A stretch of 64,000 bases of DNA from Macrostomum lignano (Eukaryota). Positions 6,231 through 64,000 of the stretch are shown one piece after another; the stretch's first letter is position 1, and each line of letters starts with the position of its first letter. The stretch lies in the NCBI GenBank assembly GCA_002269645.1, contig NIVC01000877.1, forward strand, positions 62,001 through 126,000. Reading direction: 5' to 3'. The translations under genes and the position numbers were made by a program. The notes under the pieces were generated by a model. That model made no database searches. It was given only the letters and a program-made list of their open reading frames with translations, and had not been told where the DNA came from.

Positions 6231-6244
6231 CTTGAAGCACATGA

Positions 6245-6600
6245 AGGTTTGCAACTTAGTGCACATTGGGGCGGTAGGTTTGGTGTACATTGGACTTATA
6301 GGGTTTGGGTATAGATTAGGCTGTAGGGTTTAGGTGCACATTGGGCTGTAGGGTTTAGGTGTACATTGGGCTGTAGGATTTGGGTGTACATTGGGCTGTA
6401 GGGTTTGGGTGTACATTGGGCTGTAGGGTTTGGGTGTACATTGGGTTGTAGGGTTTGGGTGTACATTGGGCTGTAGGGTTTGGGTGTACATTGGGGCTGT
6501 AGATTAGGTGCATATTGGGGCTGTAGGTTTGGTGTACATTGGGCCGTAGGTTTGGTGTAACATTGGGGGGGGCTGTAGGGTTTAGGTGTACATTAACCTT
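6245..6600. repeat. About 25-bp tandem repeat (TTGGGTGTACATTGGGCTGTAGGGT) in POLG intron 1
   Basis: Directly visible repeats. Confidence 0.9.
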
Positions 6601-44700: not shown

Positions 44701-47700
44701 GAAGAGAGAGGAGGGAGAGAAGAGAGGAGGGAGAGAAGAGAGAGAAGAGGAGAGAGAGGAGGGAGAGGAGAGAGAGGAGAGAGAGAAGAGAGAGGAGGGA
44801 GAGAAGAGAGGAGGGAGAGAAGAGAGAGAAGAGGAGAGAGAGGAGGGAGAGGAGAGAGAGGAGAGAGAGGAGGGAGAGGAGAGAGAGAAGGGAGAGGAGG
44901 GAGAGAAGAGAGAGGAGGGAGAGAAGAGAGGAGGGAGAGAAGAGAGAGAAGAGAAGGGAGAGGAGAGAGAGGAGGGAGAGGAGAGAGAGAAGAGAGAGGA
45001 GAGAGAGAAGGGAGAGGAGGGAGAGGAGAGAGAGGAGGGAGAGGAGAGAGAGAAGAGAAGGGAGAGGAGAGAGAGGAGGGAGAGGAGAGAGAGAAGAGAG
45101 AGGAGAGAGAGAAGGGAGAGGAGGGAGAGAAGAGAGAGGAGGGAGAGAAGAGAGAGGAGGGAGAGAAGAGAGGAGGAAGAGGAGGCAAGAATCGACAAAA
45201 GCGAAAGCGAGCCCCGTCGCAAATGTCGTGCGACTCTGTCTCAGGCGACGTGGACATGAGGGACGTAGAAAATGGAGATGGACTGACCTCTTCTGCTGGA
45301 GCTGCAGTAAAGGTAAGTGGCATAAGTGGACAATTTTTGCTTCTATCTCATAGGGCCGCAGATCTTAAAATTAAAACAGCATTTAGATGGGCCACCCGCT
45401 ATCTATGCAGTGCCAGCCAGCAGGTGCCAAACACAACCTGGTTTCACCTGATCCTGGGAACAGATTCCTTATGTCGTTAATGGATTTTAAATTTTGCGTC
45501 TCTTACTACTAGCGTTACAGAATCATTCAGAATCATTCAAACATTATAAAAACTTCTTGACACTAAATTTTAAACACAAAAAGGATAAAAACAAAAGCTT
45601 TACCTTAATAAACGCCTATATACCCCCACTGTCTTCAAAATATTATGAAGAAGAAAATTGGGAACAGTTAACAATTCTCCTGGATGCTTACCACTCCGAA
45701 GAAAACATCTTCCTTATTGGAGACTTCAATGCTCATATATACAATACCTCGTACATAGATTTAAATTCAATATATACCACCAGAGCAAAAAACATCTCAC
45801 TTACTAGACAAAGCCAAGACAAGAAAACCTGCAAAAATGGTAGACTACTTAACCAGATTGCTGACTCATACAACCTGCATCTAATCAATGGTAGATCATT
45901 ATCAGACACAAATGGTGAATTCACCTTTCTCTCAAAATCTGGTTCCTCTGTTATAGATCTCTGTTTCGTCTCTACCAGCTTACTCCAACACCTTGAAGAC
46001 TTTAAAGTAAAGAACCACACCTACTTTAGCGACCACAACCAAATAGTGCTCTCCCTATCAAGTGAATTCACAGAGGAAATCACAGAAACTAAACAAGCAA
46101 CCAATAACTCGAAAACGAGATACAGAGTCCTAAAAAAGTCACATAAACCCAACCTGCAACAAGAAAAACATATCAATAACTTCGCAAATGACCTGAAAAA
46201 CATGAATGACAAAATCACAAATCTAGACATACAAAACCCAGCTTTTATAAATGAATTAAGTAGAAAAGTTAGACAAATTCAAAACAACATCACAGTAGAG
46301 ATAAAGAACCCACTATGCTCAACACTGCCTCGCTTCCTTAAAGATTTAAGAAACGCTGCTAGACATGCCTGCAGAAGATATAAAACCTTCCCTACTCCCA
46401 ACAACCTCTCAAGCAAAGTACAACTCAAAAAAAGCATACGAAAAAAAGCTCACTTCATGGAAATTTGAAACAACTCTCTGTGCAGACAACATGATCAACC
46501 AAGCCTTTATTCAAAACGATACAAAACAACTTTGGAACTTATTAAAAACACCAAATCCCTCAAACAACAGAGTAACAATTGATGAAAAATTTATCATACA
46601 CTTTCAAAATCTTGTAACTGAACAAGACAGCAGCATTAGACTTTCATACAATCTTCACCTTGACAACCCTATTCTGGCTGATTTAGAGGATTTCAATGCC
46701 CCATTCACCAAAGAAGAAGTTATAAAACATATTAAAAAGCTCAAAACTGACAAAGCACCTGGGCACGATAAAGTATATGTAGAAACACTCAAATACCTCG
46801 AGAACGAACTTGCTGACCTCCTATGCTCACTTTTCAACGAAGCACTCAAACAAGGAACCTTCCCAACTAGTTGGATAACAAATACACTTCATCCGATTTA
46901 TAAAAACAAAGGCAGCAGTGCCGACCCCAACAATTACAGAGGAATCTGCATTCAACCAATTCTTGGCAAGCTCTTTTGCCAAATTATTAAATCCAGACTC
47001 GAAAACCTAGCATACGCAAACAATCTTATATCAAAATACCAATACGGTTTCAAGCCCAATCACAGCACAATCGACCAATGTTTTAATCTTTACAACATTA
47101 TAAACCAATCCATCTACAACAAAGAAGAACTCTTTATTGGATTTGTTGACTATGAAAAAGCCTTCGATAGCTTAAATCAACCGACCCTCTGGCACAAAAC
47201 GGATAACCAGGGTATTAAAGGTCAAATGACGGAACTTATCAAGAACATGCATAAAAATGCCTGCTTCATTCTAAAAAATGATGATGATGATGATGAAACC
47301 CAGCCAATCCCAATATCAAAAGCTGTTCTTCAAGGCAACCCTCTCTCTACCATCCTTTTTGAACTATATATTGACGACATTGTTGAATATCTTGAACTCT
47401 CTAGCGCTAGGCGCTCTCTTACGAGATCTGCTTTCCCACTCATCCTACTCTTTGCAGACGATCAAGCCATTCTAGCTAAAAACAAAGACGAACTTCAAGA
47501 CACATTTACGACTATGGAAAATTACTGCAAACAAAATTACTTGAAAGTAAATGCAAGCAAAACAAAGTTCATGCAGGGCAATACCAGACAAAAAAACGAC
47601 GCAGAAAGCATTGCTACAAAAATATACTACGACAACCAAGAAATAGAGGAAGTAAATGAATTTAAATACCTGGGAATTATTTTTGAACCAAAAAACAGCT

Positions 47701-50214
47701 TTAAAAAATGTATTGAACACCAAACTAAGCAGGGATATACAGCCATGTTTTCCCTACTCCATAGGGTAAAGAATACGTCCCTAGACATCACACTCATTCG
47801 CAGACTATTTGACGCGCTTGTTACCCCCGTTATCACTTACGGTTGTGAGCTCTGGGGCCCTCTGGCTACCATGTCTGATACAAAAGCTATTGATAATATT
47901 CAGCTGAAGTTCTACAAATATCTCCTCAATCTACTAAAATTTGCTAGCAACAGTGTGATATCATCAGAACTTGAGCTTACTCCAATCTCTCAACGAATCG
48001 CTAAAACCTACCTTATCTACTGGCTGAAGATTAGACACAAAAAACTCTGCCAAACGACTCTAGAAATTTTCTACTCAAACACCAGCCAAAAAAATCCATG
48101 GAAAACAAATGTACTAAAGAAACTGGAAAGTATAGACTTAAAAGCACTAACTGAAGATAAACTTTCCCAAAGCTTTAATAACGAGAAATACCTAGTGAAA
48201 AAGCACCTCAAGATACACAGAGAAAGAGAACTTAGCCAAAAGCTAGAGAATCAGCAACATATTAAACTCTACAAAAACGCCTATCTCTACAAAAAAATCT
48301 GCAGGCCCGACCTTTCAGATTACTTTCCATGCACTTTTAGAAACAAAAAATTCTTAACAACCCTCCTAAAACTGAAATGCGAAATTACACCCAACATTTT
48401 CTCTCATGAAGCATGTAGACTGTGTGGAGCGAGAAATGGTTCCGATATCCTACACTACTTGACCGAATGTCCTCAAACTGAAAAGATCAGAAAAAAATAC
48501 TTCTGTCAGTACCTCTTAAATGACAAGCAAGTACACAAGTTAGGATATGCTACAAATGAAAAAAGAGTCAGAAAAGAGCTCACTGGTGTAGCTAAAATAT
48601 ATGAAGTCATGAATAGCTAAAACAGTTATGCAAACTGAAACAGACATATCAGCAGTGAAATAAATCCGCTTTTCTTTTGTTTATTCATTTACTGCCTTTT
48701 TAATTTCCTATTTAATTAGCATTTAATTAATATTTAATTAGTTTCCTATCTAATACCTATTTAAATCGTCGCTATTCGTTTAACGTAAATTTCTTTCGAA
48801 GTTCGTTTTTGTTCATTTTTCGTTCGTTTTTCACGCTTTGAAATATTGCGCGCTTGCAAAATACTATATCTTTTTACAAAAAACGCTCTTTCAAATACCT
48901 TAATAATTTTACAAATATCGTAACTCGCATCGTAACTCGTGTAAAAATTTAACCTTTTGAACAAATTTAACCTTTTGAACTTAATCGTAATTAAACAACT
49001 AATGCTAAAATAACTTAAATACACAGAAATATACTGGCCAAACAGGCTTCTTGCCTGAGCCAACTTACTACTACTACTACTTAGCGGCCCTTGCAATAAA
49101 TAATAAATAAGTCAGTGGCTCGTAATAGCAAATTATTTGCACAGTGCTTTTATCACTTTGAAGTCACTGTCACTCCAGCCCGCAGCGCCTGGCGAGCAGC
49201 AGCAAGCTGTGCTCAGTGTTGTGACTGCGCATTTGCCTGTCGCCGCTTTCAAGCACACCGAGAGAGCTGTTGAGATTCAGCGTCCTGACGATGATCTCTT
49301 CCGTCACGGGTGAGTGCCCGCCTGACTGACAGGCTTACGCTTAACAGCTATCGCGTCTGAAACTTCAACCAACCCCCAAGGCACAGTTTGTGTGCATGCC
49401 TGACAATAAGAAAGCCGGGACTGCTGTGCACCCTGTGTGAGCATGTGCCTGCCTGCTCAGGGGACAGCGGAATGTGCCTGCCTGCTCAGGGGACAGCGGA
49501 ATGTGCCTGCCTGCTCAGGGGACAGCGGAATGTGCCTGCCTGCTCAGGGGACAGCGGAATGTGCCTGCCTGCTCAGGGGACAGCGGAATGTGCCTGCCTG
49601 CTCAGGGGACAGCGGAATGTGCCTGCCTGCTCAGGGGACAGCGGAATGTGCCTGCCTGCTCAGGGGACAGCGGAATGTGCCTGACTGCTCAGGGGACAGC
49701 GGAATGTGCCTGCCTGCTCAGGGGACAGCGGAATGTGCCTGCCTGCTCAGGGGACAGCGGAATGTGCCTGCCTGCTCAGGGGACAGCGGAATGTGCCTGC
49801 CTGCTCAGGACAGCGGAATGTGCCTGCCTGCTCAGGGGACAGCGGAATGTGCCTGCCTGCTCAGGGGACAGCGGAATGTGCCTGCCTGCTCAGGGGACAG
49901 CGGAATGTGCCTGCCTGCTCAGGACAGCGGAATGTGCCTGACTGCTCAGGGGACAGCGGAATGTGCCTGCCTGCCTGCTCAGGACAGCGGAATGTGCCTG
50001 CCTGCTCAGGGGACAGCGGAATGTGCCTGACTGCTCAGGGGACAGCGGAATGTGCCTGCCTGCTCAGGGGACAGCGGAATGTGCCTGCCTGCTCAGGACA
50101 GCGGAATGTGCCTGCCTGCTCAGGGGACAGCGGAATGTGCCTGACTGCTCAGGGGACAGCGGAATGGGCCTGCCTGCTCGCTTCCTCTCTAGCTGCGGGA
50201 CTCCTGCAAACTAA
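41772..50214 (+). CDS. Multi-exon orphan gene, 5' end not located. Predicted exons 41772-41909, 42004-42087, 42175-42435, 42779-42880, 43271-43400, 43525-43807, 44119-44265, 44472-45312, 49164-49309, 50193-50214
   Basis: Ten AG/GT-bounded exons chain in a consistent phase to a TAA at 50212; repeated SLSLQP and D.ENGD modules; no recognisable family. Confidence 0.6.
44527..45180. repeat. Purine-only (GA) repeat lying inside predicted exon 44472-45312
   Basis: No T residues, so no stops or GT donors; frame open from acceptor to donor. Confidence 0.9.
45515..46433 (+). CDS. LINE ORF2, N-terminal part (C-terminal half of the APE endonuclease)
   Basis: INAYIPP, LIGDFNAH, NGRLL, SVIDLCFVS, SDHNQI motifs; +1 shift in the A7 run at 46427-46433. 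Confidence 0.88.
46434..48620 (+). CDS. LINE ORF2 reverse transcriptase with C-terminal CCHC zinc knuckle
   Basis: KAPGHD, NYRGICI, QYGFKP, FVDYEKAFD, QGNPLS, LFADD, YLG, CRLCG...HYLTEC. Confidence 0.95.
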   Translation, partial: AYEKKLTSWKFETTLCADNMINQAFIQNDTKQLWNLLKTPNPSNNRVTIDEKFIIHFQNLVTEQDSSIRLSYNLHLDNPILADLEDFNAPFTKEEVIKHIKKLKTDKAPGHDKVYVETLKYLENELADLLCSLFNEALKQGTFPTSWITNTLHPIYKNKGSSADPNNYRGICIQPILGKLFCQIIKSRLENLAYANNLISKYQYGFKPNHSTIDQCFNLYNIINQSIYNKEELFIGFVDYEKAFDSLNQPTLWHKTDNQGIKGQMTELIKNMHKNACFILKNDDDDDETQPIPISKAVLQGNPLSTILFELYIDDIVEYLELSSARRSLTRSAFPLILLFADDQAILAKNKDELQDTFTTMENYCKQNYLKVNASKTKFMQGNTRQKNDAESIATKIYYDNQEIEEVNEFKYLGIIFEPKNSFKKCIEHQTKQGYTAMFSLLHRVKNTSLDITLIRRLFDALVTPVITYGCELWGPLATMSDTKAIDNIQLKFYKYLLNLLKFASNSVISSELELTPISQRIAKTYLIYWLKIRHKKLCQTTLEIFYSNTSQKNPWKTNVLKKLESIDLKALTEDKLSQSFNNEKYLVKKHLKIHRERELSQKLENQQHIKLYKNAYLYKKICRPDLSDYFPCTFRNKKFLTTLLKLKCEITPNIFSHEACRLCGARNGSDILHYLTECPQTEKIRKKYFCQYLLNDKQVHKLGYATNEKRVRKELTGVAKIYEVMNS
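49443..50170. repeat. 29-bp minisatellite (TGTGCCTGCCTGCTCAGGGGACAGCGGAA) in the last intron
   Basis: About 25 copies; single-copy homologue at about 44387-44414. Confidence 0.95.
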
Positions 50215-50637
50215 CTATGGAATGGTGCCAGTTATTAACGAATTAATGACCTCGATATTTTATTAGACACAAGTTAAAAAACGGCAAGTTAAAAGCATAA
50301 AGATCCACGAAAATGAAATAAGGGATTAAGAGTGCCGGGCCCCGGCCTTGGATTGCGACAATTTAGGAATAGAACTGGGGCTTTTGTGCCAATCTTAGTG
50401 TCTAAGAGAAAAGAAAAAAACTGTTTAACAGAAAAGTGGGCCTTTATCAAAGGGAAAGAGACGAAAACTAAAACCAACTGATTCATTACGCCAGACCCGA
50501 GAACGAAGCGCTACTGCTGCCGCCTCCTGTCAAGAAGCTAAAATCTGGCGCCGTGAATACGGTCTCGGACCGGCCGGGCACCTGAAGTGATTCATTTTGG
50601 CCCTGAAAGCTTCAATCCAGTTTGAATGTATTTCCAA

Positions 50638-50748
50638 CCAATGAACGCGCTCCAACTAGCAAAAGTTGAGGACACGACCTCAACCTCAACCAATGAAAAG
50701 TAGTTATGTACCACCCAATGCGATCAAGACCGAAAAGTACTATAAAAA
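50638..50748 (+). promoter_or_regulatory. Candidate Pol II promoter or LTR U3: three CCAAT boxes plus TATAAAAA
   Basis: CCAAT at 50638, 50691 and 50715; TATAAAAA at 50741, followed by a pyrimidine-rich leader. Confidence 0.35.
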
Positions 50749-51765
50749 CCTATGTCAACCAAGCAAGAAGCTCGCTCCCTCTCTTTGCCTCCCTTCGCCT
50801 CCTTTTTTGCCCTCTTTTTGCCTGTCTCGCCTTCGCCTCTATTAGCTTCTGTCAGCTATCTAAGAATTACTTTTGATTGAAACAGTTTGGGTCTCAACCC
50901 AAATACCAAAGCTAATAACTTGACCCACTGAAATTGAATTGACAAACAACCCTTTCTCCACAATAGACTGAACCTTCGGTTCACCCAAACAACCAGAACC
51001 CACTATAACTTGAATTGAACGAGCTCCTTGTTTGGAATACCATCTGTAGACATTAAGGTCGTACTATAAAGCTGTCGTAGCGTAAGTTCGATCGTATGTC
51101 GGAACTTTTACACTGCGGAGATAGGATCTGAGAACGATCTTATCTTACGATGGCTTTATAGAACGGGCCCATTATATTTTGTAAGATAACATCTCGAGAT
51201 TGTGACCATCAACTACGAGCGTACAACGGTCTGTAAGTTACCATCAAGTGTTTGCCTCATCAGGAAAACTCAGTTGAATCCGCCGCCTCAGTTATTTGGC
51301 TCTCACATTGATACTCGAAGTAGACATAGAGCCACAGTGAGAGTGAGAGTGAGAGACCACACAAACAACAGCATATATTTGAAATAATTCACACCCGACC
51401 GTTGTAATCAGTTGCAGACTGTCTTTCTGCTTTTTAGTGTAAGGGCATTTGACATTTTGATAACAAAATATTCTCGTTTGATTGTTTGCTGACATTTCCC
51501 CAAAATCTAAGAGTTTTATGAAGTTTTTAAACTAAAAAAAAACTGGCAAGGCGAAGGCCAGCAGCCTTTCTAAAATTGTTACTAAAATTGTTCTGTCAGT
51601 TGTTACTTAAGAGTATTTGATATTAGATAAAATGTGATTGAATTGTAAAAAAAAATTGTAAAATTTTTGTCAAATCCTCCATCACAGTTTGAGGGCATTT
51701 ATTGAATTTTTTTATTAGAGGACTAGTGATCTCTGTTGGTGTTATAATAGAGGATTATTGGTCTA

Positions 51766-52623
51766 TGTGATGTAACCGCCCTTGTCGCCTGTCCGCTCCG
51801 TAGAGAGACGAACGCATGACTAGAGGGGGCAATGACCGTAGGCTGCCTATGACCGGGCAATGGCCTGACGTACCTCCAGCACCAGACTGTCCCGCCCACA
51901 TGATTGATAGCTTTGGTAGCGCTTTGTGACCAGAGGGCCAAGGGCCCACATGGACCCCATCTGTAGCCAAGGTGCAATAGTTGGTCACTCGGTCATAGTA
52001 TGACCGAGTGGCTGCCACCACTCTATGTGACCTGGCGCACCTGGATCTTTCTACCAGACCTCTCGAGGCTAGAGCCCCGCCTGGGATCGTTACCAGGAGA
52101 TTTAGGCTAACAGGGGAGACACATGCAGCCGAGTACAGGGACTCTGCTTGGGGCATGATCGGGAACTCTGGGCTCAATCTGGAGGATTTCTCAGCAGGGG
52201 ATCCTTTGTGGCTGTGAGCGAGGCTAACTTGCGACTTTGATTACTAAGAGTAGTATGAGACGAACATGTACTGTCTATAGGTTAGATTGCTCAGGGCGAA
52301 GGGACGCGTCAGCATGGGGTTGCAACCTTCCTACTGCCATTCTGTGCCAAGACTCGCTAATCCCCTCTACTGCCCGCACACACGGCCCCGCAGCACGCAC
52401 TCACAGGCGGGCTGTGCACGGGGAGAGGCCATTAGCTTACCCAACTTCCTTATGCTTTGCCACCCCGGGAGAAAGGCTTAGCAAGCCATGAGTGAAATGA
52501 TGGTGAAAGAGTGAATAATGATGGGGTTAGTTAATAGTTAATATTTAGGCCCTTAGGCAAAGAATCAGGCAATTAGGCGGCTTCACTATTGAATAAAATA
52601 CAGCAGAAAGTTACGGTATCACA
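51766..52623 (+). mobile_element. Candidate solo LTR
   Basis: TGTGAT...ATCACA inverted ends, AATAAA at 52592, GC-richer than the flanks; no TSD found. Confidence 0.35.
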
Positions 52624-53120
52624 ATTGACTCAGCTCTCTAATCAGACAATGGAAAATAGGCAAACCCCGGATAAGCAAAGGCAATTAGAGCACAAATTAG
52701 TAATAGGAACTTACCGGCAGCTGCACAGAGAGAGAGAGAGAGACGGGGTGACCGAGGGCGGCTGTAGGCTGCAGTCAGGCAGAAATAGTATACGTTTTTT
52801 TGACACAAAGCCGATTTCCTTATGGCGAAATACATAGTAAGTACAGGCCCAAAAAATGGCAGAGTCTGAAATTTGCCGTGCACGCAAACTAGCTTTTACG
52901 CAATGAATTAACCAATTAGCTGAATCACTTTTACGCAAACACCTGTCTATCCACCTAAATTCTATCCGCAATGAATGCTGCTAATTACAAGCCCAACCAA
53001 AATTCAATTTGACACAAAGCTTATTTCGCGTATAACTTAACGCATTTAAATTCTTCTTTTCAAGCAGTATTGTATATTTCAACTAGATACAAACACAATT
53101 TGACGCACAAATTAGCGAGT

Positions 53121-53684
53121 CTACAAATATTGAGGCAGCACTCGTAAAACAAAATTGCGTAATTTACCATACAAGTATCGAAACGAACCAGTGCGAATTA
53201 TATTCCGTTTAAAAACGCTTCTAATAAAACACTCTAGGTTTCCTCTGGTAGTCAACTTATGAAAAATATAAAAAATTACCCAAAATCCACAACTTCCACT
53301 CTGTGGGTCTTGGATAGCAAAGCGACTATAACACCAATTTTTCGAATTTTCACATTCTTTTCCTAGCCATTTTGCTATTCTTGGCAATGGTAGTAGACCA
53401 AGAGAATCAAAATATTCACCAAGTCGTTTGCTACCGCGACCTGCTCGATGACCATAAACCCAAACGCATACCCAATGTTTTCCGGGCAGGTTGGAGACGT
53501 CAGTATTAACGATAAAAAAATAGTCTTTACCGTCTAAAGGTAAGCGTCTAAGTCCACCAACAAAGTTTTGAGGAAAAACACCAAGAAATACAACATTTAA
53601 AAAATGTGCGCACAATTTCGATACAACATTGCGAAGGAAGCGATCTGTTACACCACGATCTAGGATAGAATCAATTACTTCCAT
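53121..53684 (-). CDS. Adenain-like (Ulp1 family) capsid maturation cysteine protease
   Basis: NTD...PGKHW (His), EYFDSLG (Asp), IQDPQSGSCGFW (Gln/Cys). Confidence 0.92.
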   Translation of the reverse strand: MEVIDSILDRGVTDRFLRNVVSKLCAHFLNVVFLGVFPQNFVGGLRRLPLDGKDYFFIVNTDVSNLPGKHWVCVWVYGHRAGRGSKRLGEYFDSLGLLPLPRIAKWLGKECENSKNWCYSRFAIQDPQSGSCGFWVIFYIFHKLTTRGNLECFIRSVFKRNIIRTGSFRYLYGKLRNFVLRVLPQYL

Positions 53685-54996
53685 ACTGTGCCAGGAACAA
53701 TGTCGCGAAGTTCAGTCAGTTGCAGTTGCTTGTCAAATATACCTCCAAATATGACGTTGTACACGGTACTAGTTGCAGCATTGAAGCGTAACTCTAGTTT
53801 TACATTTCCTTCCTTATACAGTTGCACTCCCCGTCCGACACCAGGTTCACTTCCAAGACTGAATGCAAAAATTGAGTAACCATTGGCGTAATCCAGCATA
53901 TTAAATCCAATATCTCGTCCCTGTAGATAGATTCCAAGCTGTTGTAGCAAAAAATTATACTCTGTCACACAATCATCTCCAAAGTTTGTCTGCAGCGGAC
54001 GCGATGGTACCGAGTCTCCATTCACAAACACACCAATGCTGCTCACATTTGCATGCTCAAAGTTGAACGGATTTGTGTCCATGCTTCCATTGAATGCCTT
54101 GTTGCTTACGATTGCCATCAATAAAAGCCGTGGTACCCCACTAGGAAACAAATTTTCATGCGTATGGCTAGACGATCCTCGGGTATAGTAAACGTACCAA
54201 GGCTTAGACTTCGGTGCGGATATAATGCATTGTGACTTTTAAGTCCATGAGCATGTGCACTGATAACACTCGGCGAGGGTTGAACAAACCGCAATCGTAG
54301 TTCTGCACGCAAAAACTTGATCTCATAGTCTTTTAAAACCGCACCAGCTTCTAATGTTGACCCGCTCAGGACAAATTTACTTTTTGCCGGTATGAGCTTG
54401 ATCCGTAGTGGTGTCTTTGATAGTAGATACCGAGGCTGACGAAACAAATCCAAGAATAACGGCCCCGATACAGTGCACCGCCTATTGTTAGCAATGAGCG
54501 CCTGCCTCTTTGTTCGTCCATCGTTTTCACTTGTTGCATTCATTTTACCAGCTGTATCCTTGTAAAACCCCCACGGCAGTAAACCAGCCTTCTGAGCTGT
54601 ATGTCCATATTCCAGTAATGTAAGAAGCATAGCCTTGTATGGATACATAAAACTACCACCTTCAACTACAGTATCGCCAATAGTAAATTGAACGTCCTCA
54701 AACAATGTTCCAATAACCAAATTATTCAAACAAACAAAATTTTTCGTTGCATCTATAGGTTCACCTTCACTATCACTAACGCTGAAGCATACCGTGAGCA
54801 CAGTTTCTTGTAGATCCAAATACAAATCGCCTGCAGGCACAACTTCAAATTCGATAGGTGATCCTTTTGTAATACCATGTTGCGGTTGAATGTTAGTATA
54901 TCGATTATCCAAAACACTAAACTGAACAGGACTTTGATCAAATAGCGACAATTCACTTTTAAGAGCAGCAATATCAGGTCCAAGCAAATGGTTCAT
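53675..54996 (-). pseudogene. Major capsid protein, duplicate copy with a 1-nt deletion (GGG vs GGGG at 54181)
   Basis: Appears otherwise identical to 55508-56830; split into ORFs 54118-55008 and 53675-54151. Confidence 0.9.
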
Positions 54997-54997
54997 G

Positions 54998-55456
54998 CTA
55001 CTTTTCAAACAGACTAAAAAGTTTCTTGCTTGCAGTAGCAGTTCGACGTTTTCCTATACCACCGGTCTTCTTGCGTTTTCTTTTGTTCACGCGTCCCTTT
55101 CCACACTGTCTTGTTCGTCGTTTCTTTTGCCGTTTCTTCTTTCCTAAGCTTATAGCCACTCCACTGGTTCTTTTCCTTCGCTTTGGTCTCGAAACTGCAG
55201 TTGTATTAAACATCTCTTCGCTCGATTCTGTGTCCAAGTGACGCTTCCGACCCATACCAATTTTTGCTGTCGCACTTTTCAAATACTCCAGACCACGATC
55301 CAAGAAATCTTTCTTTGCGTTGCGTAGTACAGGATACACCAATCTGTCCGCCAAATTTGACAAAAAACCGTAACCTTCGTAAACAGGAATGCCATATCCA
55401 CCTCCACCTTCAGCAGATCTATTCGGACCAGAATAAAAAGCAAAAATAGGATCCAT
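54998..55456 (-). CDS. Basic core-like (pVII-type) protein, duplicate copy
   Basis: Identical translation to 56832-57290. Confidence 0.7.
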   Translation of the reverse strand: MDPIFAFYSGPNRSAEGGGGYGIPVYEGYGFLSNLADRLVYPVLRNAKKDFLDRGLEYLKSATAKIGMGRKRHLDTESSEEMFNTTAVSRPKRRKRTSGVAISLGKKKRQKKRRTRQCGKGRVNKRKRKKTGGIGKRRTATASKKLFSLFEK

Positions 55457-55507
55457 TTCAACAGTCTTCTCTTCGTCATGTTACACCACGATCTAGGATA
55501 GAATCAA

Positions 55508-56830
55508 TTACTTCCATACTGTGCCAGGAACAATGTCGCGAAGTTCAGTCAGTTGCAGTTGCTTGTCAAATATACCTCCAAATATGACGTTGTACACGGT
55601 ACTAGTTGCAGCATTGAAGCGTAACTCTAGTTTTACATTTCCTTCCTTATACAGTTGCACTCCCCGTCCGACACCAGGTTCACTTCCAAGACTGAATGCA
55701 AAAATTGAGTAACCATTGGCGTAATCCAGCATATTAAATCCAATATCTCGTCCCTGTAGATAGATTCCAAGCTGTTGTAGCAAAAAATTATACTCTGTCA
55801 CACAATCATCTCCAAAGTTTGTCTGCAGCGGACGCGATGGTACCGAGTCTCCATTCACAAACACACCAATGCTGCTCACATTTGCATGCTCAAAGTTGAA
55901 CGGATTTGTGTCCATGCTTCCATTGAATGCCTTGTTGCTTACGATTGCCATCAATAAAAGCCGTGGTACCCCACTAGGAAACAAATTTTCATGCGTATGG
56001 CTAGACGATCCTCGGGGTATAGTAAACGTACCAAGGCTTAGACTTCGGTGCGGATATAATGCATTGTGACTTTTAAGTCCATGAGCATGTGCACTGATAA
56101 CACTCGGCGAGGGTTGAACAAACCGCAATCGTAGTTCTGCACGCAAAAACTTGATCTCATAGTCTTTTAAAACCGCACCAGCTTCTAATGTTGACCCGCT
56201 CAGGACAAATTTACTTTTTGCCGGTATGAGCTTGATCCGTAGTGGTGTCTTTGATAGTAGATACCGAGGCTGACGAAACAAATCCAAGAATAACGGCCCC
56301 GATACAGTGCACCGCCTATTGTTAGCAATGAGCGCCTGCCTCTTTGTTCGTCCATCGTTTTCACTTGTTGCATTCATTTTACCAGCTGTATCCTTGTAAA
56401 ACCCCCACGGCAGTAAACCAGCCTTCTGAGCTGTATGTCCATATTCCAGTAATGTAAGAAGCATAGCCTTGTATGGATACATAAAACTACCACCTTCAAC
56501 TACAGTATCGCCAATAGTAAATTGAACGTCCTCAAACAATGTTCCAATAACCAAATTATTCAAACAAACAAAATTTTTCGTTGCATCTATAGGTTCACCT
56601 TCACTATCACTAACGCTGAAGCATACCGTGAGCACAGTTTCTTGTAGATCCAAATACAAATCGCCTGCAGGCACAACTTCAAATTCGATAGGTGATCCTT
56701 TTGTAATACCATGTTGCGGTTGAATGTTAGTATATCGATTATCCAAAACACTAAACTGAACAGGACTTTGATCAAATAGCGACAATTCACTTTTAAGAGC
56801 AGCAATATCAGGTCCAAGCAAATGGTTCAT
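55508..56830 (-). CDS. Double jelly-roll major capsid protein (Polinton PY/hexon-like)
   Basis: KSELSLFDQSPVQ, SPIEFEV, YPYKAMLLTLLEY, NPFNFEH, GNVKLELRF motifs; ATG at 56830 (ORF track uses an upstream TTG). Confidence 0.92.
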   Translation of the reverse strand: MNHLLGPDIAALKSELSLFDQSPVQFSVLDNRYTNIQPQHGITKGSPIEFEVVPAGDLYLDLQETVLTVCFSVSDSEGEPIDATKNFVCLNNLVIGTLFEDVQFTIGDTVVEGGSFMYPYKAMLLTLLEYGHTAQKAGLLPWGFYKDTAGKMNATSENDGRTKRQALIANNRRCTVSGPLFLDLFRQPRYLLSKTPLRIKLIPAKSKFVLSGSTLEAGAVLKDYEIKFLRAELRLRFVQPSPSVISAHAHGLKSHNALYPHRSLSLGTFTIPRGSSSHTHENLFPSGVPRLLLMAIVSNKAFNGSMDTNPFNFEHANVSSIGVFVNGDSVPSRPLQTNFGDDCVTEYNFLLQQLGIYLQGRDIGFNMLDYANGYSIFAFSLGSEPGVGRGVQLYKEGNVKLELRFNAATSTVYNVIFGGIFDKQLQLTELRDIVPGTVWK

Positions 56831-56831
56831 G

Positions 56832-57290
56832 CTACTTTTCAAACAGACTAAAAAGTTTCTTGCTTGCAGTAGCAGTTCGACGTTTTCCTATACCACCGGT
56901 CTTCTTGCGTTTTCTTTTGTTCACGCGTCCCTTTCCACACTGTCTTGTTCGTCGTTTCTTTTGCCGTTTCTTCTTTCCTAAGCTTATAGCCACTCCACTG
57001 GTTCTTTTCCTTCGCTTTGGTCTCGAAACTGCAGTTGTATTAAACATCTCTTCGCTCGATTCTGTGTCCAAGTGACGCTTCCGACCCATACCAATTTTTG
57101 CTGTCGCACTTTTCAAATACTCCAGACCACGATCCAAGAAATCTTTCTTTGCGTTGCGTAGTACAGGATACACCAATCTGTCCGCCAAATTTGACAAAAA
57201 ACCGTAACCTTCGTAAACAGGAATGCCATATCCACCTCCACCTTCAGCAGATCTATTCGGACCAGAATAAAAAGCAAAAATAGGATCCAT
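56832..57290 (-). CDS. Basic core-like (pVII-type) DNA-condensing protein
   Basis: GYGIPVYEGYGFLSNL N-terminal motif and K/R-rich C-terminus; located immediately before the MCP. Confidence 0.65.
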   Translation of the reverse strand: MDPIFAFYSGPNRSAEGGGGYGIPVYEGYGFLSNLADRLVYPVLRNAKKDFLDRGLEYLKSATAKIGMGRKRHLDTESSEEMFNTTAVSRPKRRKRTSGVAISLGKKKRQKKRRTRQCGKGRVNKRKRKKTGGIGKRRTATASKKLFSLFEK

Positions 57291-57331
57291 TTCAACAGTC
57301 TTCTCTTCGTCATGCAATCCCAATTCATGTG

Positions 57332-58492
57332 TTACTTATACACTTTAGAAAATAGTTTAGCAGTCTTTGCGTCAAGATCATTTTCGTTTAACCACTGACT
57401 TCTTGAGATTGGCATACCTTTCCATTTTACTAGATACAGACGACTTCCATTTTTCGCTCGATCAGTTTCAATAACTTTTTCAATTTCATTAGGTGTTTCA
57501 TCTGTCTCGTTTACCAACATTAGTTCCGCTTGGTTAAACCTTCCTTTCAGCACTTCAAATCCATCTTCAGGGTCCACTAATTCGTACATTGGCGGGTCTG
57601 TCAAGTGTACACGATGAATGCGATATTTTGAATTACTCCAAGTCGTAGTGTATCCTTTTTCAAATGTTCCTCGACGTCGTGTAATTCTAACCCAATCACC
57701 AACTTTAAATTTATTCTCATTCTTTTTAGTGTACGACTTCGCAAACATTTTGTCCCACAAAATTCCTTGTAAATGCGGGTCTGTCTCTACCCGTTTTGGT
57801 GTTTCTCCACTCAAGGATCGATGAGGACTAGAGTTGAAATTATCTTCCAATTGCGGTAAAATGTCAAACCATCGAGGTAAATTTTTTGCTCGAAAGTATC
57901 GTAATAGACGTTCCTTTAACGAGCGGATAAATCGTTCAGCCATGCTTGCCTTGTAATTGCTTTGGCTAACAAAAAATCGAACTCCTTCCTGTTTCAGCAT
58001 TTGACGTGTAGCTCTTCCGAGAAACTCCATACCAGCATCACCTTGTAAATAAACAGGCTTAAAACCACTTCGAAAAATCTCTAGTAATACTTGACTAACT
58101 TCTGAAGGCTTCTTTGTACGCAATGGTCTTAGTCGTACAACTCTAGTAAAACAGTCGATAAGAACAAGTATGTAACGATAACCTCGATTTTCCGTCTTGT
58201 ATTGAGGTAAATCTGCCAAATCGATTTGAAACTGAAACTTTGCAACTGGTGGCACACTAATTTTTGGAGTTGGAAAGTTTCGTCGTGTTTTTCGAAATAA
58301 ATGATGCTCATTTGTTGATCGCACCCAATTATCAACTTCGCGCTTTGCAACTTTGTTCGTAATCTGTGGAAACTTTTTACGTACTTCACGAACAAGTATA
58401 GTCTTGTTACCACTAAATGAAGTAGGCCTGTTCAAGTTAAAAAAAGCATCCGTCAAAAATTCTTCAATTTCCTTACGCACTCGCTTCATCAT
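57332..58492 (-). CDS. Retroviral-like (rve) integrase with C-terminal chromodomain
   Basis: QIDLAD, LIDCFTR, QGDAGMEF, ASMAERFIRSLK (D,D,E); C-terminal IEKVI...YLVKWKG...SQW. Confidence 0.95.
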   Translation of the reverse strand: MMKRVRKEIEEFLTDAFFNLNRPTSFSGNKTILVREVRKKFPQITNKVAKREVDNWVRSTNEHHLFRKTRRNFPTPKISVPPVAKFQFQIDLADLPQYKTENRGYRYILVLIDCFTRVVRLRPLRTKKPSEVSQVLLEIFRSGFKPVYLQGDAGMEFLGRATRQMLKQEGVRFFVSQSNYKASMAERFIRSLKERLLRYFRAKNLPRWFDILPQLEDNFNSSPHRSLSGETPKRVETDPHLQGILWDKMFAKSYTKKNENKFKVGDWVRITRRRGTFEKGYTTTWSNSKYRIHRVHLTDPPMYELVDPEDGFEVLKGRFNQAELMLVNETDETPNEIEKVIETDRAKNGSRLYLVKWKGMPISRSQWLNENDLDAKTAKLFSKVYK

Positions 58493-58661
58493 CAGTTAGA
58501 TTGATGCTAGTCGTTTGACAGTTGCAACAAAAGAACGAAGCCTCGATCGAATCTCCGTCAGTATCCTCGTTGTGCTCCTTTCCCAGAAACGGCACACATT
58601 CAGATTTTATGCAAAAAAACTCACAGAGACGAATCAAAAGTTTTTGGAAGATAGATGACAT
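58473..58661 (-). CDS. Small hypothetical Polinton ORF (62 aa)
   Basis: ATG start, overlaps the integrase start, fits the packed gene order. Confidence 0.4.
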   Translation of the reverse strand: MSSIFQKLLIRLCEFFCIKSECVPFLGKEHNEDTDGDSIEASFFCCNCQTTSINLTDDEASA

Positions 58662-58773
58662 GGTTTGTCTTATTAAACTATATATTTTTCATAAACAAAA
58701 AATTAACCTTTTTAAAAAGCTTATAGTGCTCGAATCAATTTTGTTAAAACGTAATCTGTAATTTTAAAACAAC

Positions 58774-59463
58774 TTAATTCAGTGTTTGATAATTTTCAAA
58801 CAGACTAAGATCCTCCTTTGCAACAGTTTTTGGAGCAGACATTAGCTCGTTTCGTACATGACGCCCGATTTGGTTTGCTGCGATTCCACGTTTTCGAAGA
58901 AAGTCTAAAAATGTTTTTAGTCCACTAGGCGGTTGAGTCTCGTGTCGCTTAAGCGGTCTGTCTCGAACAACATATTCCATGAGATCTTGTATCTCGGCAT
59001 CAGTCAAATTAGCCAGCATTGGTTCTGCATTCTTGTCCATGTCCGAAAATAGGTTTTGAGCGAGAGCTTCGAAACGTGGTAAAAAAACTTTAGGAATTTC
59101 CCTTGATTCGCTGGCATATGAACTTCTTACAGTAGTCCCTTTGCGAACAAGTGACAGATTGTCCTCGTCTCCAGTGCGATAGACTTTGCGCAATTTTAAA
59201 AGTTTGTCTTCCAATCTGCTTCGTTTCAATTGAGCTGTGTAATTTGGCTCCTTTTCCATTTCCTTGTCCAAGTTATCCATTTGGTCTCTCATTTCCACCA
59301 TATTTTTTGCCAGAGCATCTTGCGGTGCGTCTAAAACTTCAGTTTTTCGAGGTGTCTCAGCAGTTGGTGACGATCCTTGCTCTGCACCTTGACATGCAGA
59401 TTGATACACAGATTCAGGTACTAGATACATTCGTTGAAAACTACTACTCTCGTTAGTTCGCAT
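58774..59463 (-). CDS. Hypothetical Polinton protein (up to 229 aa; possible start at MYLVPE)
   Basis: Long ORF co-oriented within the viral gene block. Confidence 0.7.
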   Translation of the reverse strand: MRTNESSSFQRMYLVPESVYQSACQGAEQGSSPTAETPRKTEVLDAPQDALAKNMVEMRDQMDNLDKEMEKEPNYTAQLKRSRLEDKLLKLRKVYRTGDEDNLSLVRKGTTVRSSYASESREIPKVFLPRFEALAQNLFSDMDKNAEPMLANLTDAEIQDLMEYVVRDRPLKRHETQPPSGLKTFLDFLRKRGIAANQIGRHVRNELMSAPKTVAKEDLSLFENYQTLN

Positions 59464-59473
59464 TATATTCCTA

Positions 59474-59902
59474 CTACTTTCGTTGAATTGATCGTATTAA
59501 ATTCGCTGCTCCCGCGGCGGTACCAACTACTCCAGACGTTATCCCAAGCGCAGTGCTTATAGCAGGTAGAGCGGCAATAATTGGAGCCAAAAAAGGTAAA
59601 AATCCTCCGTGTTGGACAAGTATTTTCCTTTTTGCAGTAATTGGAGTCTTCTGTTCCAAAAGCTGGCGTATATATCTGCGATGCTTCTCAAGTCGTCTTT
59701 TGTTACAGTTACTAATTTTAATACGTCCACTAATAATATTAAACAGAAAGTCTACTAGACATCGTATCTCCGACTCTGAAAGTGTTTGTAAAAAACTTTT
59801 TCTCTGCTTTGGATGCTTTAGCCGATAAACAATTTGTAGTAAAAAAGCACACTGACACAATGAGCGAGCATTTTGTTTTCCTTTTTCTGTTAGTTCGCTC
59901 AT
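59474..59902 (-). CDS. Basic protein with an adenovirus pX-like GGFLP hydrophobic tail
   Basis: QHGGFLPFLAPIIAALPAI resembles adenovirus pX GGFLPALIPIIAAAI. Confidence 0.7.
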   Translation of the reverse strand: MSELTEKGKQNARSLCQCAFLLQIVYRLKHPKQRKSFLQTLSESEIRCLVDFLFNIISGRIKISNCNKRRLEKHRRYIRQLLEQKTPITAKRKILVQHGGFLPFLAPIIAALPAISTALGITSGVVGTAAGAANLIRSIQRK

Positions 59903-59958
59903 TCTTACAAAACAAATTCACAAAATTTTCTATTACACAATTAATCTTTGCTTATAAA

Positions 59959-60948
59959 TTAGTCCGACCTATGTTTAAAATGCAGTACGACAACAACGTG
60001 TGCTCCCGGATCAAAATTAAACGGTTTTCCGCGCTGGTCCGATAGTCGAATCGAAATCTCGTGAATTTGTTGTCGATTTGTTTTCAAGTAGTAGGGTGTT
60101 TGCAATGCACTGCTATCGCGTATAAGTTCTCCGTTTTTCTTTTGTTGGAGTTCCACAACTCGAAGCAACGGTACTGATGTACTTCCCACTGCTTGATACT
60201 CGATTATATCTGTGTAACAGTACATGTAAACCGTTTTACTAGGCATCGGAGAAGGTAGCACAGCATCCAAGTAGGTTTTGTTAATGCGCCAAACACGATT
60301 TCTCAACCAATATTGGTGTACTTTGATGTACACTTCTCCTTCCGTTTTTCGAAGATAGTCTCCATGCGAAACAAGTCGTATAGCTTCACCAGGCGATAGA
60401 ACACAATAAAAAACATAATAGTTCTCAGGTACTAGCGCTAGAGTATTGTCGAGACTTTTTATCAAATCCAAGTATGAACCATCCGGTGGTTGTACACTAC
60501 CAGCGGCAGGTTTTGATAATTTTTCCGAGACAAGTCCAGAAAGTTTCTTCCAAGAGTCAAATTTGAAAGCGTCCATAAATGTAACTGGTAGTTCTAATCC
60601 AATAGTTTTTTCGCCTGAATTTCGTAAAAGCCAGGCAAATTTTTCATCTGTACCAGACGGTTGCCAGGAAACGTAAGCATCCAAGTCTGCCTCTGCCCAA
60701 ACACGACCCCAATAGTTTTTCTTTAATCGTATTATTGAGTCAATGTCCGCAAAATATGGAACTTCAAATCGACGCTCACGATGAGCATTTGGCGTCGTAA
60801 TTGCTCCATGGCACAGTAATTCAACTAGTGCAACCTCGAAGAATCCGTTCAATAAATTTATTGGTTCAGTTAGTCGCACTCGAAATTCATTAGGCGAGTT
60901 GGTTTCGTAACTGATATCGTTTGACGGCAAAAAAACGTAAAAACTCAT
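59959..60948 (-). CDS. Minor capsid protein (penton-like single jelly-roll)
   Basis: FYVFLPSN...FEVALVEL N-terminus; YCYTDIIEYQAVG..VPLLRVV...ISIRLSDQRG...LHFK C-terminus. Confidence 0.88.
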   Translation of the reverse strand: MSFYVFLPSNDISYETNSPNEFRVRLTEPINLLNGFFEVALVELLCHGAITTPNAHRERRFEVPYFADIDSIIRLKKNYWGRVWAEADLDAYVSWQPSGTDEKFAWLLRNSGEKTIGLELPVTFMDAFKFDSWKKLSGLVSEKLSKPAAGSVQPPDGSYLDLIKSLDNTLALVPENYYVFYCVLSPGEAIRLVSHGDYLRKTEGEVYIKVHQYWLRNRVWRINKTYLDAVLPSPMPSKTVYMYCYTDIIEYQAVGSTSVPLLRVVELQQKKNGELIRDSSALQTPYYLKTNRQQIHEISIRLSDQRGKPFNFDPGAHVVVVLHFKHRSD

Positions 60949-60983
60949 TTTGAAATAAAACACAAACTAATATTGACAACAGT

Positions 60984-61694
60984 TTATAATTTGCTTATAA
61001 TAATATTACACAAACTTTGCATCACATTCACGAGTATAGACAACTTGTTCATCACCAGAAATATTCCTGTTCTCAATCGTAAAAAATCTGGTGTCACTTG
61101 CCGCAGGTCAATGAATAAATATGAAAAAGGTTTGTTATTTGTTGCGTCTTCATACACATTCACTAGAAACCTACTATTACGCGGATACATTTGTCGACCG
61201 AGATGTTCAACTGTGGTTCGATCGCGCACACTACGAGTTAGACAAATATAACTAGCTGATAAACTTCGCATGCGTGCTTCTGGATCAGACTTGTTAAAAA
61301 GACCTTGACAAAGGTACAGACAAGTCAAAGGGATATGATGCGCATGCTTTGTAAACATACTAGTAAATTCTGGCAACTTAGCAATCTCGCTTTGCAAGTC
61401 GTCAACAACAACCAAATCGTGTGGTAAAAAACGATTAATCATCTGTGGTGTGAATTCGGGTACAAAAACAATAGGGTCAAGACCGCTTTTTTGCCAGCAT
61501 GTTCTAATTCGTTGTTGATCGTCTGGTTTCAAACTTGATCCATGGCACCAAACAAGACGGCACGGTTTTTTATCAAATAATTCTTTTCGTTCAGTCAACA
61601 AACGCAACGTCCATTCAGTTTTACCCGAGTTTGAAGGTCCAGCAATAATAAATGTAGAATCGTGAGCTAGTTGCATATTGTATGGCTGCTGCAT
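60984..61694 (-). CDS. A32-like (FtsK-HerA) genome packaging ATPase
   Basis: Walker A GPSNSGKT, Walker B VVVDDL, MRSLSASY; the C-terminus is probably frameshifted near 61058. Confidence 0.93.
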   Translation of the reverse strand: MQQPYNMQLAHDSTFIIAGPSNSGKTEWTLRLLTERKELFDKKPCRLVWCHGSSLKPDDQQRIRTCWQKSGLDPIVFVPEFTPQMINRFLPHDLVVVDDLQSEIAKLPEFTSMFTKHAHHIPLTCLYLCQGLFNKSDPEARMRSLSASYICLTRSVRDRTTVEHLGRQMYPRNSRFLVNVYEDATNNKPFSYLFIDLRQVTPDFLRLRTGIFLVMNKLSILVNVMQSLCNIIISKL

Positions 61695-61696
61695 TT

Positions 61697-62140
61697 TCAA
61701 GCACCAAAGCGTTGCTTAACTTGCATAACCTTGGTAACCAACTTCGCAGCTAGTTTTTCTTTCCAACCAGTAGACGGATCGTGGGCAATCTCTCGTGCAC
61801 CAGATTCTAATAGCTTATCAGCTTTTAACCTCTCTTGCACGTCAGAATTTTTATCATAGGCCACGTCGTGAAGCATGCACAAATTGTCAAGCCGATTAAT
61901 TCCTCGTTGTCCTTTTGCTAGCCTAGCTTGCAGTTGCGTACCTGGACCACAAAACTGATATCCGCCGGGTAAATGTGCTTCAAATGGTAAATGATTAATT
62001 AACCAATTTACGACACCATAACCTTGTTGCTTTTTATTAATCTTTCTAATAGATTTCTTCTTTTTACGAATGCTCTTCTTTTTCTTTTTAAAACCTCGAT
62101 CTTTCGCTGGAGACATTTTTACAACATATATTTTAGGCAT
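61697..62140 (-). CDS. Parvovirus VP1u-like phospholipase A2 domain protein with basic N-terminus
   Basis: HLPGGYQFCGPGT calcium-loop-like motif, HDVAY catalytic motif, RLKADKLL. Confidence 0.88.
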   Translation of the reverse strand: MPKIYVVKMSPAKDRGFKKKKKSIRKKKKSIRKINKKQQGYGVVNWLINHLPFEAHLPGGYQFCGPGTQLQARLAKGQRGINRLDNLCMLHDVAYDKNSDVQERLKADKLLESGAREIAHDPSTGWKEKLAAKLVTKVMQVKQRFGA

Positions 62141-62231
62141 AAATTTTTAAAATTGCTTATAGTATTTACAAAGCTCTCGCATAGTGCACCAATCACCAAA
62201 GAAAAAAATCAGTTTATTATTATTATTATAC

Positions 62232-62714
62232 TTATTGGCCAGTGCTGCCAAAGCCGCCAAAGCCGCGCCGCTTGGTCGGCGGCTCAATCATCCGAATCGA
62301 ATTGTCTGCTTCAGTCACATAGACTGAAGCAAGCACGGCCTGCTCCAGAACCAGTTGTGCAATACTGAGCCCGGCATAGTACTCAAAGTCTTCCGGACTG
62401 TAATTAAACAAGACTATACAGATTTCACCAGTATAGTCGGGGTCGATTACGCCACCGCCAACAAATAAGCTGTGCAGAGCCATGCTGGAACGTCCCGCTA
62501 TCCTGCCATAGGTACCAGGCGGTAAGCGAATTTTGAGTCCGGTTCGCACACTCCGGGACTCGTAGGCCGGAATGGTACCATCGACGCCAGCGCAAAGATC
62601 ATACCCGATCGACCCGACAGTTTTTCGGGTCGGAATCGTTGCCGAATCGTATAGACGTTCAACTAAAAGCTTACGATCAGTTAGTTGTTGTTGCTGCTGC
62701 TGCTCGGGATTCAT
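62232..62714 (-). CDS. dut: Trimeric dUTPase
   Basis: All five motifs: GYDL, GRIAGRSSMA, GGVIDPDYTGEI, SIAQLV, RRGFGGFGSTG; likely ATG at 62714. Confidence 0.95.
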   Translation of the reverse strand: MNPEQQQQQQLTDRKLLVERLYDSATIPTRKTVGSIGYDLCAGVDGTIPAYESRSVRTGLKIRLPPGTYGRIAGRSSMALHSLFVGGGVIDPDYTGEICIVLFNYSPEDFEYYAGLSIAQLVLEQAVLASVYVTEADNSIRMIEPPTKRRGFGGFGSTGQ

Positions 62715-63006
62715 GTCGATTCTTGTAGCTGAAAGTTTAAAAAAAAGTTTTTTTTCTTGAAACATGAACGATAGCACTACATTTACGTCTACTACAAACA
62801 CAAGCTTAGTCTTGAGAATCTAACTATAAAAAATATACTTTTTCAAATAATTAAACACAAAAAAGTGCTAAAATTATAATTTAAACGAATGCCGGTATCA
62901 TTTATTTATTGTAAATAATGATCAATGAAAAAATTAATGATGGGTTACAGTCTTCTATAGCATGCTATTACTTTGTACAACAAAAGAGATCAGAGCATAT
63001 TGTTAA

Positions 63007-63337
63007 TTAATTAGCCAAGTGCCAGTGTCCAAAGGGTAGCGAATTAATTGAACTTGTCCAGGATCGCTTCGTATCGAAGAAGCTTAGTGCAAGTTTTCTT
63101 TGTTGCATCAAAAAAAACTTTCTGTTTTCGAGAACGAATGGACTGCATGCGCGAAAACACAAGTTGTCGCTTGTGTAAGACTCTTAAATAGTCTTGATGC
63201 TTTAAACTGCTCTGTGCGGCTTTAGAAGCAGTACTGCTCCAGCTTTGCGACCGATTGAGACTGGAACTTTAAACGATTGCTGCTTAACCAGACCGGACCG
63301 GACTGGACCGGACCGGACTGGACCGGACTCCCCGCGC

Positions 63338-63369
<32 letters not shown>

Positions 63370-64000
63370 ACCACCACCGCCGCCACCACCACCACCACCA
63401 CCGCCGCCACCACCACCACTGCCGCCGCCCGCCCCCACACCACCGTGGGACGTATTTGTTGACAGTGTGCTTGCATGGCTTTTGCGATAAACGCAGAGCA
63501 TCAAGTCTAGCTGCTCGATTGCTCTATATTGCCAATTACTACCTCGAGATTGAAAATTGTCAATTTTTATTAACAACTGATTAATAACGCGTGCGAACCA
63601 GTCATTGTAGGCCTCGGGAGATAACAGCATGTCACTGTTTGCAATCGTCTCATCAAATGATATTGTCGCAATGTTGGTATTAAAATAGACCGAAATGATC
63701 TCTTCGCTGCTCGAGCCATCGTTGTCGTCTGCTGCTGTTTTCGGTCGAAATAGTGTCACTTTCAAGTGAAAGCAGACTCTTATTAATAAACTGGGTGAGC
63801 CAATTTTTTCCAATATTTTAAATATTGGTTCTCTTAAAGACGCAATCAACTCGCCAGGAAGTAACTCGCCAGAGCTGTTGCCTTGTTGTTCAAGAGTGGG
63901 AGTAAATTCGACAAAATTTACCCGACCACGATGAGCTGACTCGCGCAAAGCGATGGACCACCCATCTGGTGGGTTTTCGATCAGGTTTTGCAGCGATCCG
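63007..64000 (-). pseudogene. Protein-primed DNA polymerase B remnant: N-terminal region fused to the extreme C-terminus, catalytic core missing
   Basis: N-terminal IDNFQSRGSNW.Y..IE.LDL...Y and SFKVPVSIGRKA; then LKHQDYL...MQSIRSRKQKVF and LSFFDTKR...NSLPFGHW* in other frames. Confidence 0.75.
63290..63440. repeat. (GGACC)n and (CCG/CCA)n microsatellites, in frame as poly-Gly in the pPolB N-terminus
   Basis: Directly visible. Confidence 0.9.

Follow-up and report, generated by a model that had tools for sequence, protein, structure and literature searches.

The window analysed here, a stretch of 64,000 nucleotides likely from Macrostomum, appears to contain near its right end an internally deleted Polinton/adintovirus copy in which about 3.2 kb of the gene for pPolB, the family B DNA polymerase that uses a protein primer, is gone at position 63208 and a frame for a predicted terminal (primer) protein is kept. 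The deletion is probably real. What is new here is that the retained part of pPolB is predicted to fold like a Polinton terminal protein (TP), with the predicted priming serine still in place and a stop just past the break.

The pPolB motifs quoted in a preliminary description of this DNA are all present in the window on the minus strand. A first frame carries NFQSRGSNW and SFKVPVSIGRKA and terminates with ...LLLKPHRAV at 63202, a second frame follows with LKHQDYL...IRSRKQKVF from 63205, and the first frame is regained with QQRKLALSFFDTKR...SLPFGHW after a shift within the A-run 63110-63117, which is where the one-base shift described earlier for the C-terminal tail is located. The second frame starts about 35 nt past ...IGRKA, where the preliminary description gives approximately 40 nt. 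Because the out-of-frame join stops two codons after 63208, the N-terminal part forms a stand-alone frame for the predicted TP. The remnant consists of the following features:

63202 to 64000, minus strand: what is left of the pPolB gene on its 5' side (predicted TP/D1 plus linker), with its stop two codons past the break and open at the window end
63484 to 63960, minus strand: TP/D1-like domain, predicted to have five strands and two main helices, with the Ser of GSNW at codon 63538-63540
63287 to 63444, minus strand: Gly-rich/CCGGA low-complexity linker, native to the pPolB family of the sister proteins P0029 and P0007
63208, no strand: site of the deletion, which removes about 1,054-1,059 codons (some 3.2 kb); out-of-frame join, one base common to both sides
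63007 to 63208, minus strand: orphan C-terminal part of about 65 pPolB codons, divided between two frames at the A-run 63110-63117

The assignment of the motifs to pPolB was borne out by a check against P0029, a natural pPolB of 1422 amino acids from Macrostomum lignano, to which both parts align. Its residues 47-298 align with 63978-63208 (36%, E 2e-40), residues 1352-1395 with 63226-63095 and residues 1386-1421 with 63123-63016, and nothing between them aligns. Another protein from Macrostomum lignano, P0007, shows 89% identity over 46 amino acids at 63345-63208 and then continues for 1,038 amino acids more, with what we take to be the predicted Cys/His of a vOTU protease, an endonuclease VII-like motif, Exo I-III and the polymerase motifs A-C. 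Judged by these motifs, the lost segment is that of the vOTU protease, the endonuclease VII-like domain, the exonuclease and polymerase motifs A-C, and the break lies a few codons ahead of the predicted vOTU catalytic Cys. The earlier claim that the polymerase core has been lost therefore holds, since about 1,055 codons are missing and none of the six frames of the 64-kb window contains any of four longer pPolB core patterns; three 4-letter core-motif matches all lie outside the Polinton element. The breakpoint itself, formerly placed near 63215-63250, has to be moved just outside this range, as both the alignment and the contig ends described below put it at 63208.

A protein search with the N-region gave four proteins at E <= 0.001, one of which (P0002) was rejected as a repeat-driven false match. 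P0003 carries the pPolB C-terminus, and the search with that part yielded 20 long relatives among 842 candidates; Endonuclease_7 was found in all six and DNA_pol_B_2 in four of the six that were scanned, and both matches fall in the part that the window copy has lost. Compared with the window, 18 of the 20 long relatives match the tail, P0007 (a partial record) matches the N-side and one matches nothing, and none of the 20 matches the window through its core region. A complete protein-primed family B polymerase is lacking in the window copy and is found in the sisters P0007 and P0029. All of the nearest relatives with a species name come from Macrostomum lignano, which points to this flatworm or a close relative as the likely host. 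The sister pPolBs match PF03175 and have an N-terminal OTU-type region, in which the Cys/His are putative motif assignments. No family in Pfam or NCBIfam was found for the N-region of the window or for either tail piece, and a PDB sequence search with the N-terminal ORF as query returned matches to the Gly linker only. In addition, an ESM Atlas match of the N-region to Imm44 (0.87, recognition 965) was rejected because it lies under the thresholds of the tool. The Gly-rich tract, which is about 80 nt away from the break, was rejected as a deletion scar because P0029 and P0007 carry one natively. The junction pattern had no match in metagenome and viral contigs, where the pPolB family itself is absent; this null is uninformative because no P0007 relative was confirmed among 21 candidate stretches.

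Three further gene models were observed in these searches. P0003 (NCBI PAA86599.1), a 271-aa model from a diverged sister family, has its TP-like region joined directly to motif C, which might reflect either an intron in the prediction or an internal deletion of independent origin. P0027, whose accession is the next after that of P0003 and whose contig is equally long, is a different pPolB fragment. P0001, from another copy or assembly, has three exons identical to the window within 58858-63729 and continues into two tandem gypsy-type gag-pol units, none of which occurs in the window. P0001 leaves out the pPolB core but was rejected as proof of a second deleted locus, since its model likewise omits two ORFs, of 243 and 335 codons, that are open at this place in the window.

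For the retained part, a structure model of 63445-63999 was folded with 14 of the 29 collected proteins, those likely to include the N-region. The model (pLDDT 84, pTM 0.79) has five strands and two main helices. Ser154 follows Gly153 in the loop 152-156, between the helix 128-151 and the strand 157-172, and a Ser at the predicted priming position is found in all 15 alignment rows, two of which are near-duplicates. In a structure search against 48,161 chains, the top eight rows were Y-family polymerases (Z 5.6-7.4), which also make up nine of the twelve chains with Z >= 5 (e.g. 4IR1 with Z 6.6, rmsd 2.9 and 97 aligned residues); the best Z of 7.4 is a middling score. The best viral match of the TP region is an adintovirus protein (E 1e-07). 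According to the available text of PMC11161782, Polinton pPolBs have the layout TP-vOTU-exonuclease-palm, the TP is related to the LF/PAD domain of Y-family polymerases, its priming Ser or Tyr lies in the loop that connects helix 2 to the last strand, with a Gly or Pro nearby, and the TP/vOTU boundary is a natural cleavage and split point. The model likewise shows the sheet of four to five strands with two helices akin to LF/PAD that marks a PRD1-like TP (D1), and the Ser in the expected loop. We therefore predict from the model that the retained part of pPolB is the terminal protein, that the Ser of GSNW is the priming residue and that the retained TP may function as a primer. Its frame starts beyond the window end, as P0029 residue 47 already aligns at 63978.

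The element extends past 64000, and a contig of the public run X5 reaches 1,321 nt further, so that a second pPolB or another replicase past the window end might keep the element autonomous. We regard this as highly improbable, because the window ends within the 5' part of the same pPolB gene, an unduplicated copy with the missing 3.2 kb would already measure about 12.6 kb, and a second replicase is absent from the Polinton architecture as described in the available text of PMC8097293.

The other genes of the element, which like pPolB all lie on the minus strand, and two further features are:

62232 to 62819, minus strand: dUTPase, open (Pfam PF00692, E 2e-29, and motifs)
61697 to 62146, minus strand: parvovirus-type phospholipase A2-like (PF08398, E 3.6e-09)
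60984 to 61715, minus strand: packaging-ATPase-like ORF with Walker A and B, no match in Pfam or NCBIfam
59959 to 60966, minus strand: open ORF of 335 codons, probably for the minor capsid (penton) protein, no family match in Pfam or NCBIfam
59474 to 59917, minus strand: ORF with an adenovirus protein X-like segment (PF05829, E 2.5e-06)
58774 to 59496, minus strand: ORF of unknown family, 240 codons
57332 to 58495, minus strand: RVE integrase, open frame of 387 codons, with a chromodomain at the C-terminus and a DDE triad (PF00665, PF00385 and motifs)
56832 to 57335, minus strand: small basic ORF
55508 to 56887, minus strand: major capsid protein (double jelly roll-like), open (ESM Atlas 0.98)
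53646 to 55480, no strand: second copy of 55479-57314 in tandem, 1836 bp, with one indel between the copies and a joint that overlaps by 2 bp
53121 to 53711, minus strand: Adenain/Ulp1-like maturation protease (phmmer to ASFV pS273R, E 0.005)
52780 to 53120, no strand: presumed left terminal region, from sequence only

The name packaging ATPase is presumed from motifs and position, and the penton identity from an N-terminal motif that we take to be typical. All four runs described below differ from the window by a one-base indel at 61057-61058 in the tail of the ATPase-like ORF, which is probably a residual assembly error; such errors thus exist, and the last approximately 20 codons of this ORF are uncertain. 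For the major capsid protein, 234 of 256 ESM Atlas features are shared and PF21738 is found on 14-30% of the members of the matched clusters; its recognition of 2287 is just below the 2300 mark of the tool, and there is no Pfam match at 0.01. The match of the protease to ASFV pS273R is weak, with the GKHW (His) motif aligned, and the gene follows the capsid gene, as would be expected.

Taken together, this gene set appears to fit that of Alpha-type adintoviruses. With the Polintons/Mavericks (Polintoviricetes) and the Alpha adintoviruses, as far as covered by the available text of Starrett et al. 2021 (PMC8502044), the window element has in common the RVE integrase with chromodomain, the capsid, the adenain-like protease and the presumed ATPase-like, the PLA2 and the protein X-like genes. 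In contrast to these elements, the window copy lacks the vOTU, endonuclease VII-like, exonuclease and polymerase domains, its PLA2 and protein X-like segments are on separate ORFs, a dUTPase is present and the capsid region is duplicated.

No long inverted repeat was found within 50200-64000; the right end of the element lies beyond the window. Adjoining the left end of the Polinton is a segment of about 1 kb (51771-52773) that starts with TG and ends with CA and is possibly a solo LTR. Further to the left, a LINE-type element on the plus strand (45491-48620) has an endonuclease ORF (PF14529) overlapping a reverse-transcriptase ORF (PF00078, E 9e-31). On the minus strand, an open frame of 353 codons (31343-32404) looks like what we take to be a Tc1/mariner-type transposase, and a frame at 5697-6329 presumably resembles an exon of the mitochondrial DNA polymerase gamma. 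The region 1-50200 is dense in minisatellites (periods 23-58) and GA/CT microsatellites (periods 2-19), which amount to 85 rows.

To what extent public data contain the same arrangement was assessed with sequencing runs, of which 17 of the 20 listed, from six studies, contain all or part of the stretch. Four runs from four studies (X4, X5, X12 and X16) were compared with the window over 55400-64000 as assembled contigs, not reads; X6-X11 and X18-X20, with small word shares, were left out of this comparison. On either side, contigs of X4, X12 and X16 part from the window precisely at 63208 (64 letters on the tail side, at least 255 on the N side), from which it follows that non-deleted, near-identical sister copies exist. 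Among the 32 pieces listed for the four runs (413 further pieces) no contig bridges 63208. In X5, however, five partly aligned records give five listed loose ends, none of them at 63208, and 30 of 30 bins are covered; by elimination, contigs of this run probably cross the junction, and X5 is possibly the source of the window.

These observations bear on the possibility that deletion and duplication are both assembly artefacts, produced by a chimeric long read or a misjoin of near-identical copies, and that the true locus has a full pPolB. The departures at 63208 in three of four runs and the lack of a listed bridge would be expected in this case, and residual indels occur at 61057-61058 and between the two duplicate copies. 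On the other hand, the join overlaps by just one base, the flanks of the break show no substitutions relative to the longest contigs listed for X4, X12 and X16, and X5, besides lacking a listed loose end at 63208, bears a duplication signature.

The duplication can be followed in the same data. Contigs of all four runs enter other sequence left of 55479, so that the unduplicated form is common. The depth inside relative to outside the duplication is 1.38 in X5, with little or no excess in X4 (1.02), X12 (1.00) and X16 (1.05), which again could speak for an artefact. Signs of the joint are indirect and were seen in X5 alone, where a contig begins exactly at 55479, one record fits two places and the first-bin depth of 66,154 is within 2% of the 64,831 expected with the joint; the 58,445 expected without it falls 12% short. 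Considering all this, we hold an artefact to be very unlikely. The capsid copy within the duplicate is frameshifted, so that the earlier statement that integrase and capsid genes are intact stands for the open integrase and for one whole capsid copy but fails for the tandem capsid copy.

The A-run puts the last approximately 33 pPolB codons out of frame. The frameshifted A-run form of the window at 63110 accounts for 81, 64, 77 and 100% of the depth in the four runs and the other A-run length is a minority in three of them, and therefore most copies appear to share the broken polymerase tail. If the majority copies are full-length, the U-rich A-run could be a slippage site. Relative to a diverged sister contig, the depth of the family is 12.4x in X4, 10.3x in X12 and 9.8x in X16, although contig depth does not equal copy number and is inflated by the hidden tetraploidy of Macrostomum lignano, whose 2n is 8 to 10 (according to the available text of PMC5704211, PMC5519732 and PMC12869490). 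X12 is identical to the window across 4,261 nt.

On balance, we slightly favour the view that the deletion is real, goes back to a single event and has been passively carried along from then on rather than having spread as a satellite. The break is fixed independently by the P0007 and P0029 proteins and by loose ends in three of four runs from three studies, and the joined sites, which lie 3.2 kb from each other and overlap by a single base, would offer an overlap assembler no repeat to collapse. In X5, contigs probably cross 63208, and traces of the duplication are found there as well. The frameshifted tail looks like decay, as does the second rearrangement, and most Mavericks are defective, with 96% in vertebrates (available text of PMC8097293). 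Yet the frameshifted tail is the majority in every run, the family is about 10-12x the rarest sister in three runs, all other tested frames are open, and none of the listed contigs bridges the break. The majority tail, the depth and the identity to X12 are better matched by a polymerase-defective lineage that multiplied recently than by one lone fossil.

Such a lineage would be a satellite or defective-interfering form that brings its own TP, integrase and capsid, relies for pPolB on full-length sisters, themselves a minority, and is by now the most frequent form in the family, which we consider possible but doubtful. The window-type tail with 64-100% of the depth, and the excess of the family over its rarest sister, point in this direction. 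In X5, the window-type tail (96) is greater than the duplication-bearing share (about 58-64), a hint that some deleted copies lack the duplication. P0001 points to a copy with a different downstream neighbour, mobile Polintons without polB have a precedent in the available text of 10.1101/2025.02.07.637071, and the break lies between TP and vOTU, at the natural cleavage or split point (PMC11161782, available text), with a stop two codons on. However, chance could also place a random 3.2-kb deletion that spares the neighbouring genes near the TP boundary, and the linkage between majority tail and deletion is presumed; full-length copies with a broken tail might instead make up the majority, hidden tetraploidy inflates the depth, no second junction, end or target site was seen, and a near-length protein search found no gene model ending at the junction among 1,050 candidates. 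A more elaborate version, in which a TP-only satellite lineage with an intact integrase and capsid module originated at the natural cleavage boundary, overtook its helpers to reach roughly two thirds to four fifths of the family, or more, and later came back towards packaging length through the duplication, in the manner of defective-interfering viruses, seems unlikely to us.

Returning to the passively carried copy, deletion and duplication likely arose by template jumps or end-joining, as suggested by the overlaps of one base and two bases, respectively, during replication of the element or after its integration. The deletion would then persist at one or a few loci or along with chromosome copies. 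An element without the replicase core is likely unable to copy itself and would depend on the pPolB of a full-length sister; it could in principle supply primer protein, integrase and capsid, and mobilisation of the deleted copy in trans is possible. The preliminary description of a replication-defective element that needs a helper is consistent with the missing replicase core, the open integrase, capsid, protease and ATPase-like frames and the existence of full-length sisters; its comparison to a satellite remains as doubtful as stated above. The predicted TP identity of the retained part and the tandem duplication in the same copy go beyond that description.

Internal deletion and reiteration, with replication functions needed in trans, are well known from defective-interfering genomes and helper-dependent derivatives of the adenovirus type. 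Deletion and duplication are common to these genomes and the window copy, which differs in being integrated and known from sequence alone. Non-autonomous Polintons were reportedly described by Kapitonov and Jurka in 2006. In the available text of the Pannagram preprint (10.1101/2025.02.07.637071), polintons lacking polB are presented from insects (Pieris mannii and a second group), with mobility inferred by its authors, who ask for the mechanism. As in the window copy, Polinton genes are kept, polB is lost and full-length relatives exist in the same species; unlike it, the insect elements have LINE or LTR cargo and insertion polymorphisms flanked by TIRs, whereas the window copy has a clean, cargo-free deletion with the TP kept. 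A likeness in gene layout is found in polintons and adenovirids with a stand-alone TP, such as the Stylophora polinton (available text of PMC11161782), where the TP likewise has its own frame, split at the TP/vOTU boundary. Those elements are autonomous with a full vOTU-exonuclease-polymerase gene adjoining, which the window copy lacks. Among the matches listed, a scope outside of which most subscription papers lie, no paper concerned a TP-retaining pPolB deletion or Macrostomum Polintons, and the TP-retaining configuration is not described in the available parts of 10.1101/2024.01.15.575659, PMC6431247, PMC3014272 and PMC4028283. Polymerase-less Polintons are thus already known, and what stands out here is a remnant that is cleanly reduced to the TP, along with hints of a family in which the defective form predominates.

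To our knowledge, the replication of Polintons has never been directly demonstrated. If the window holds a single decayed copy, it would be an ordinary case, since most Mavericks in animal genomes are broken. If, however, a lineage has dropped its polymerase yet keeps the predicted TP, this would mean that pPolB can act in trans and that the TP is worth keeping in cis.
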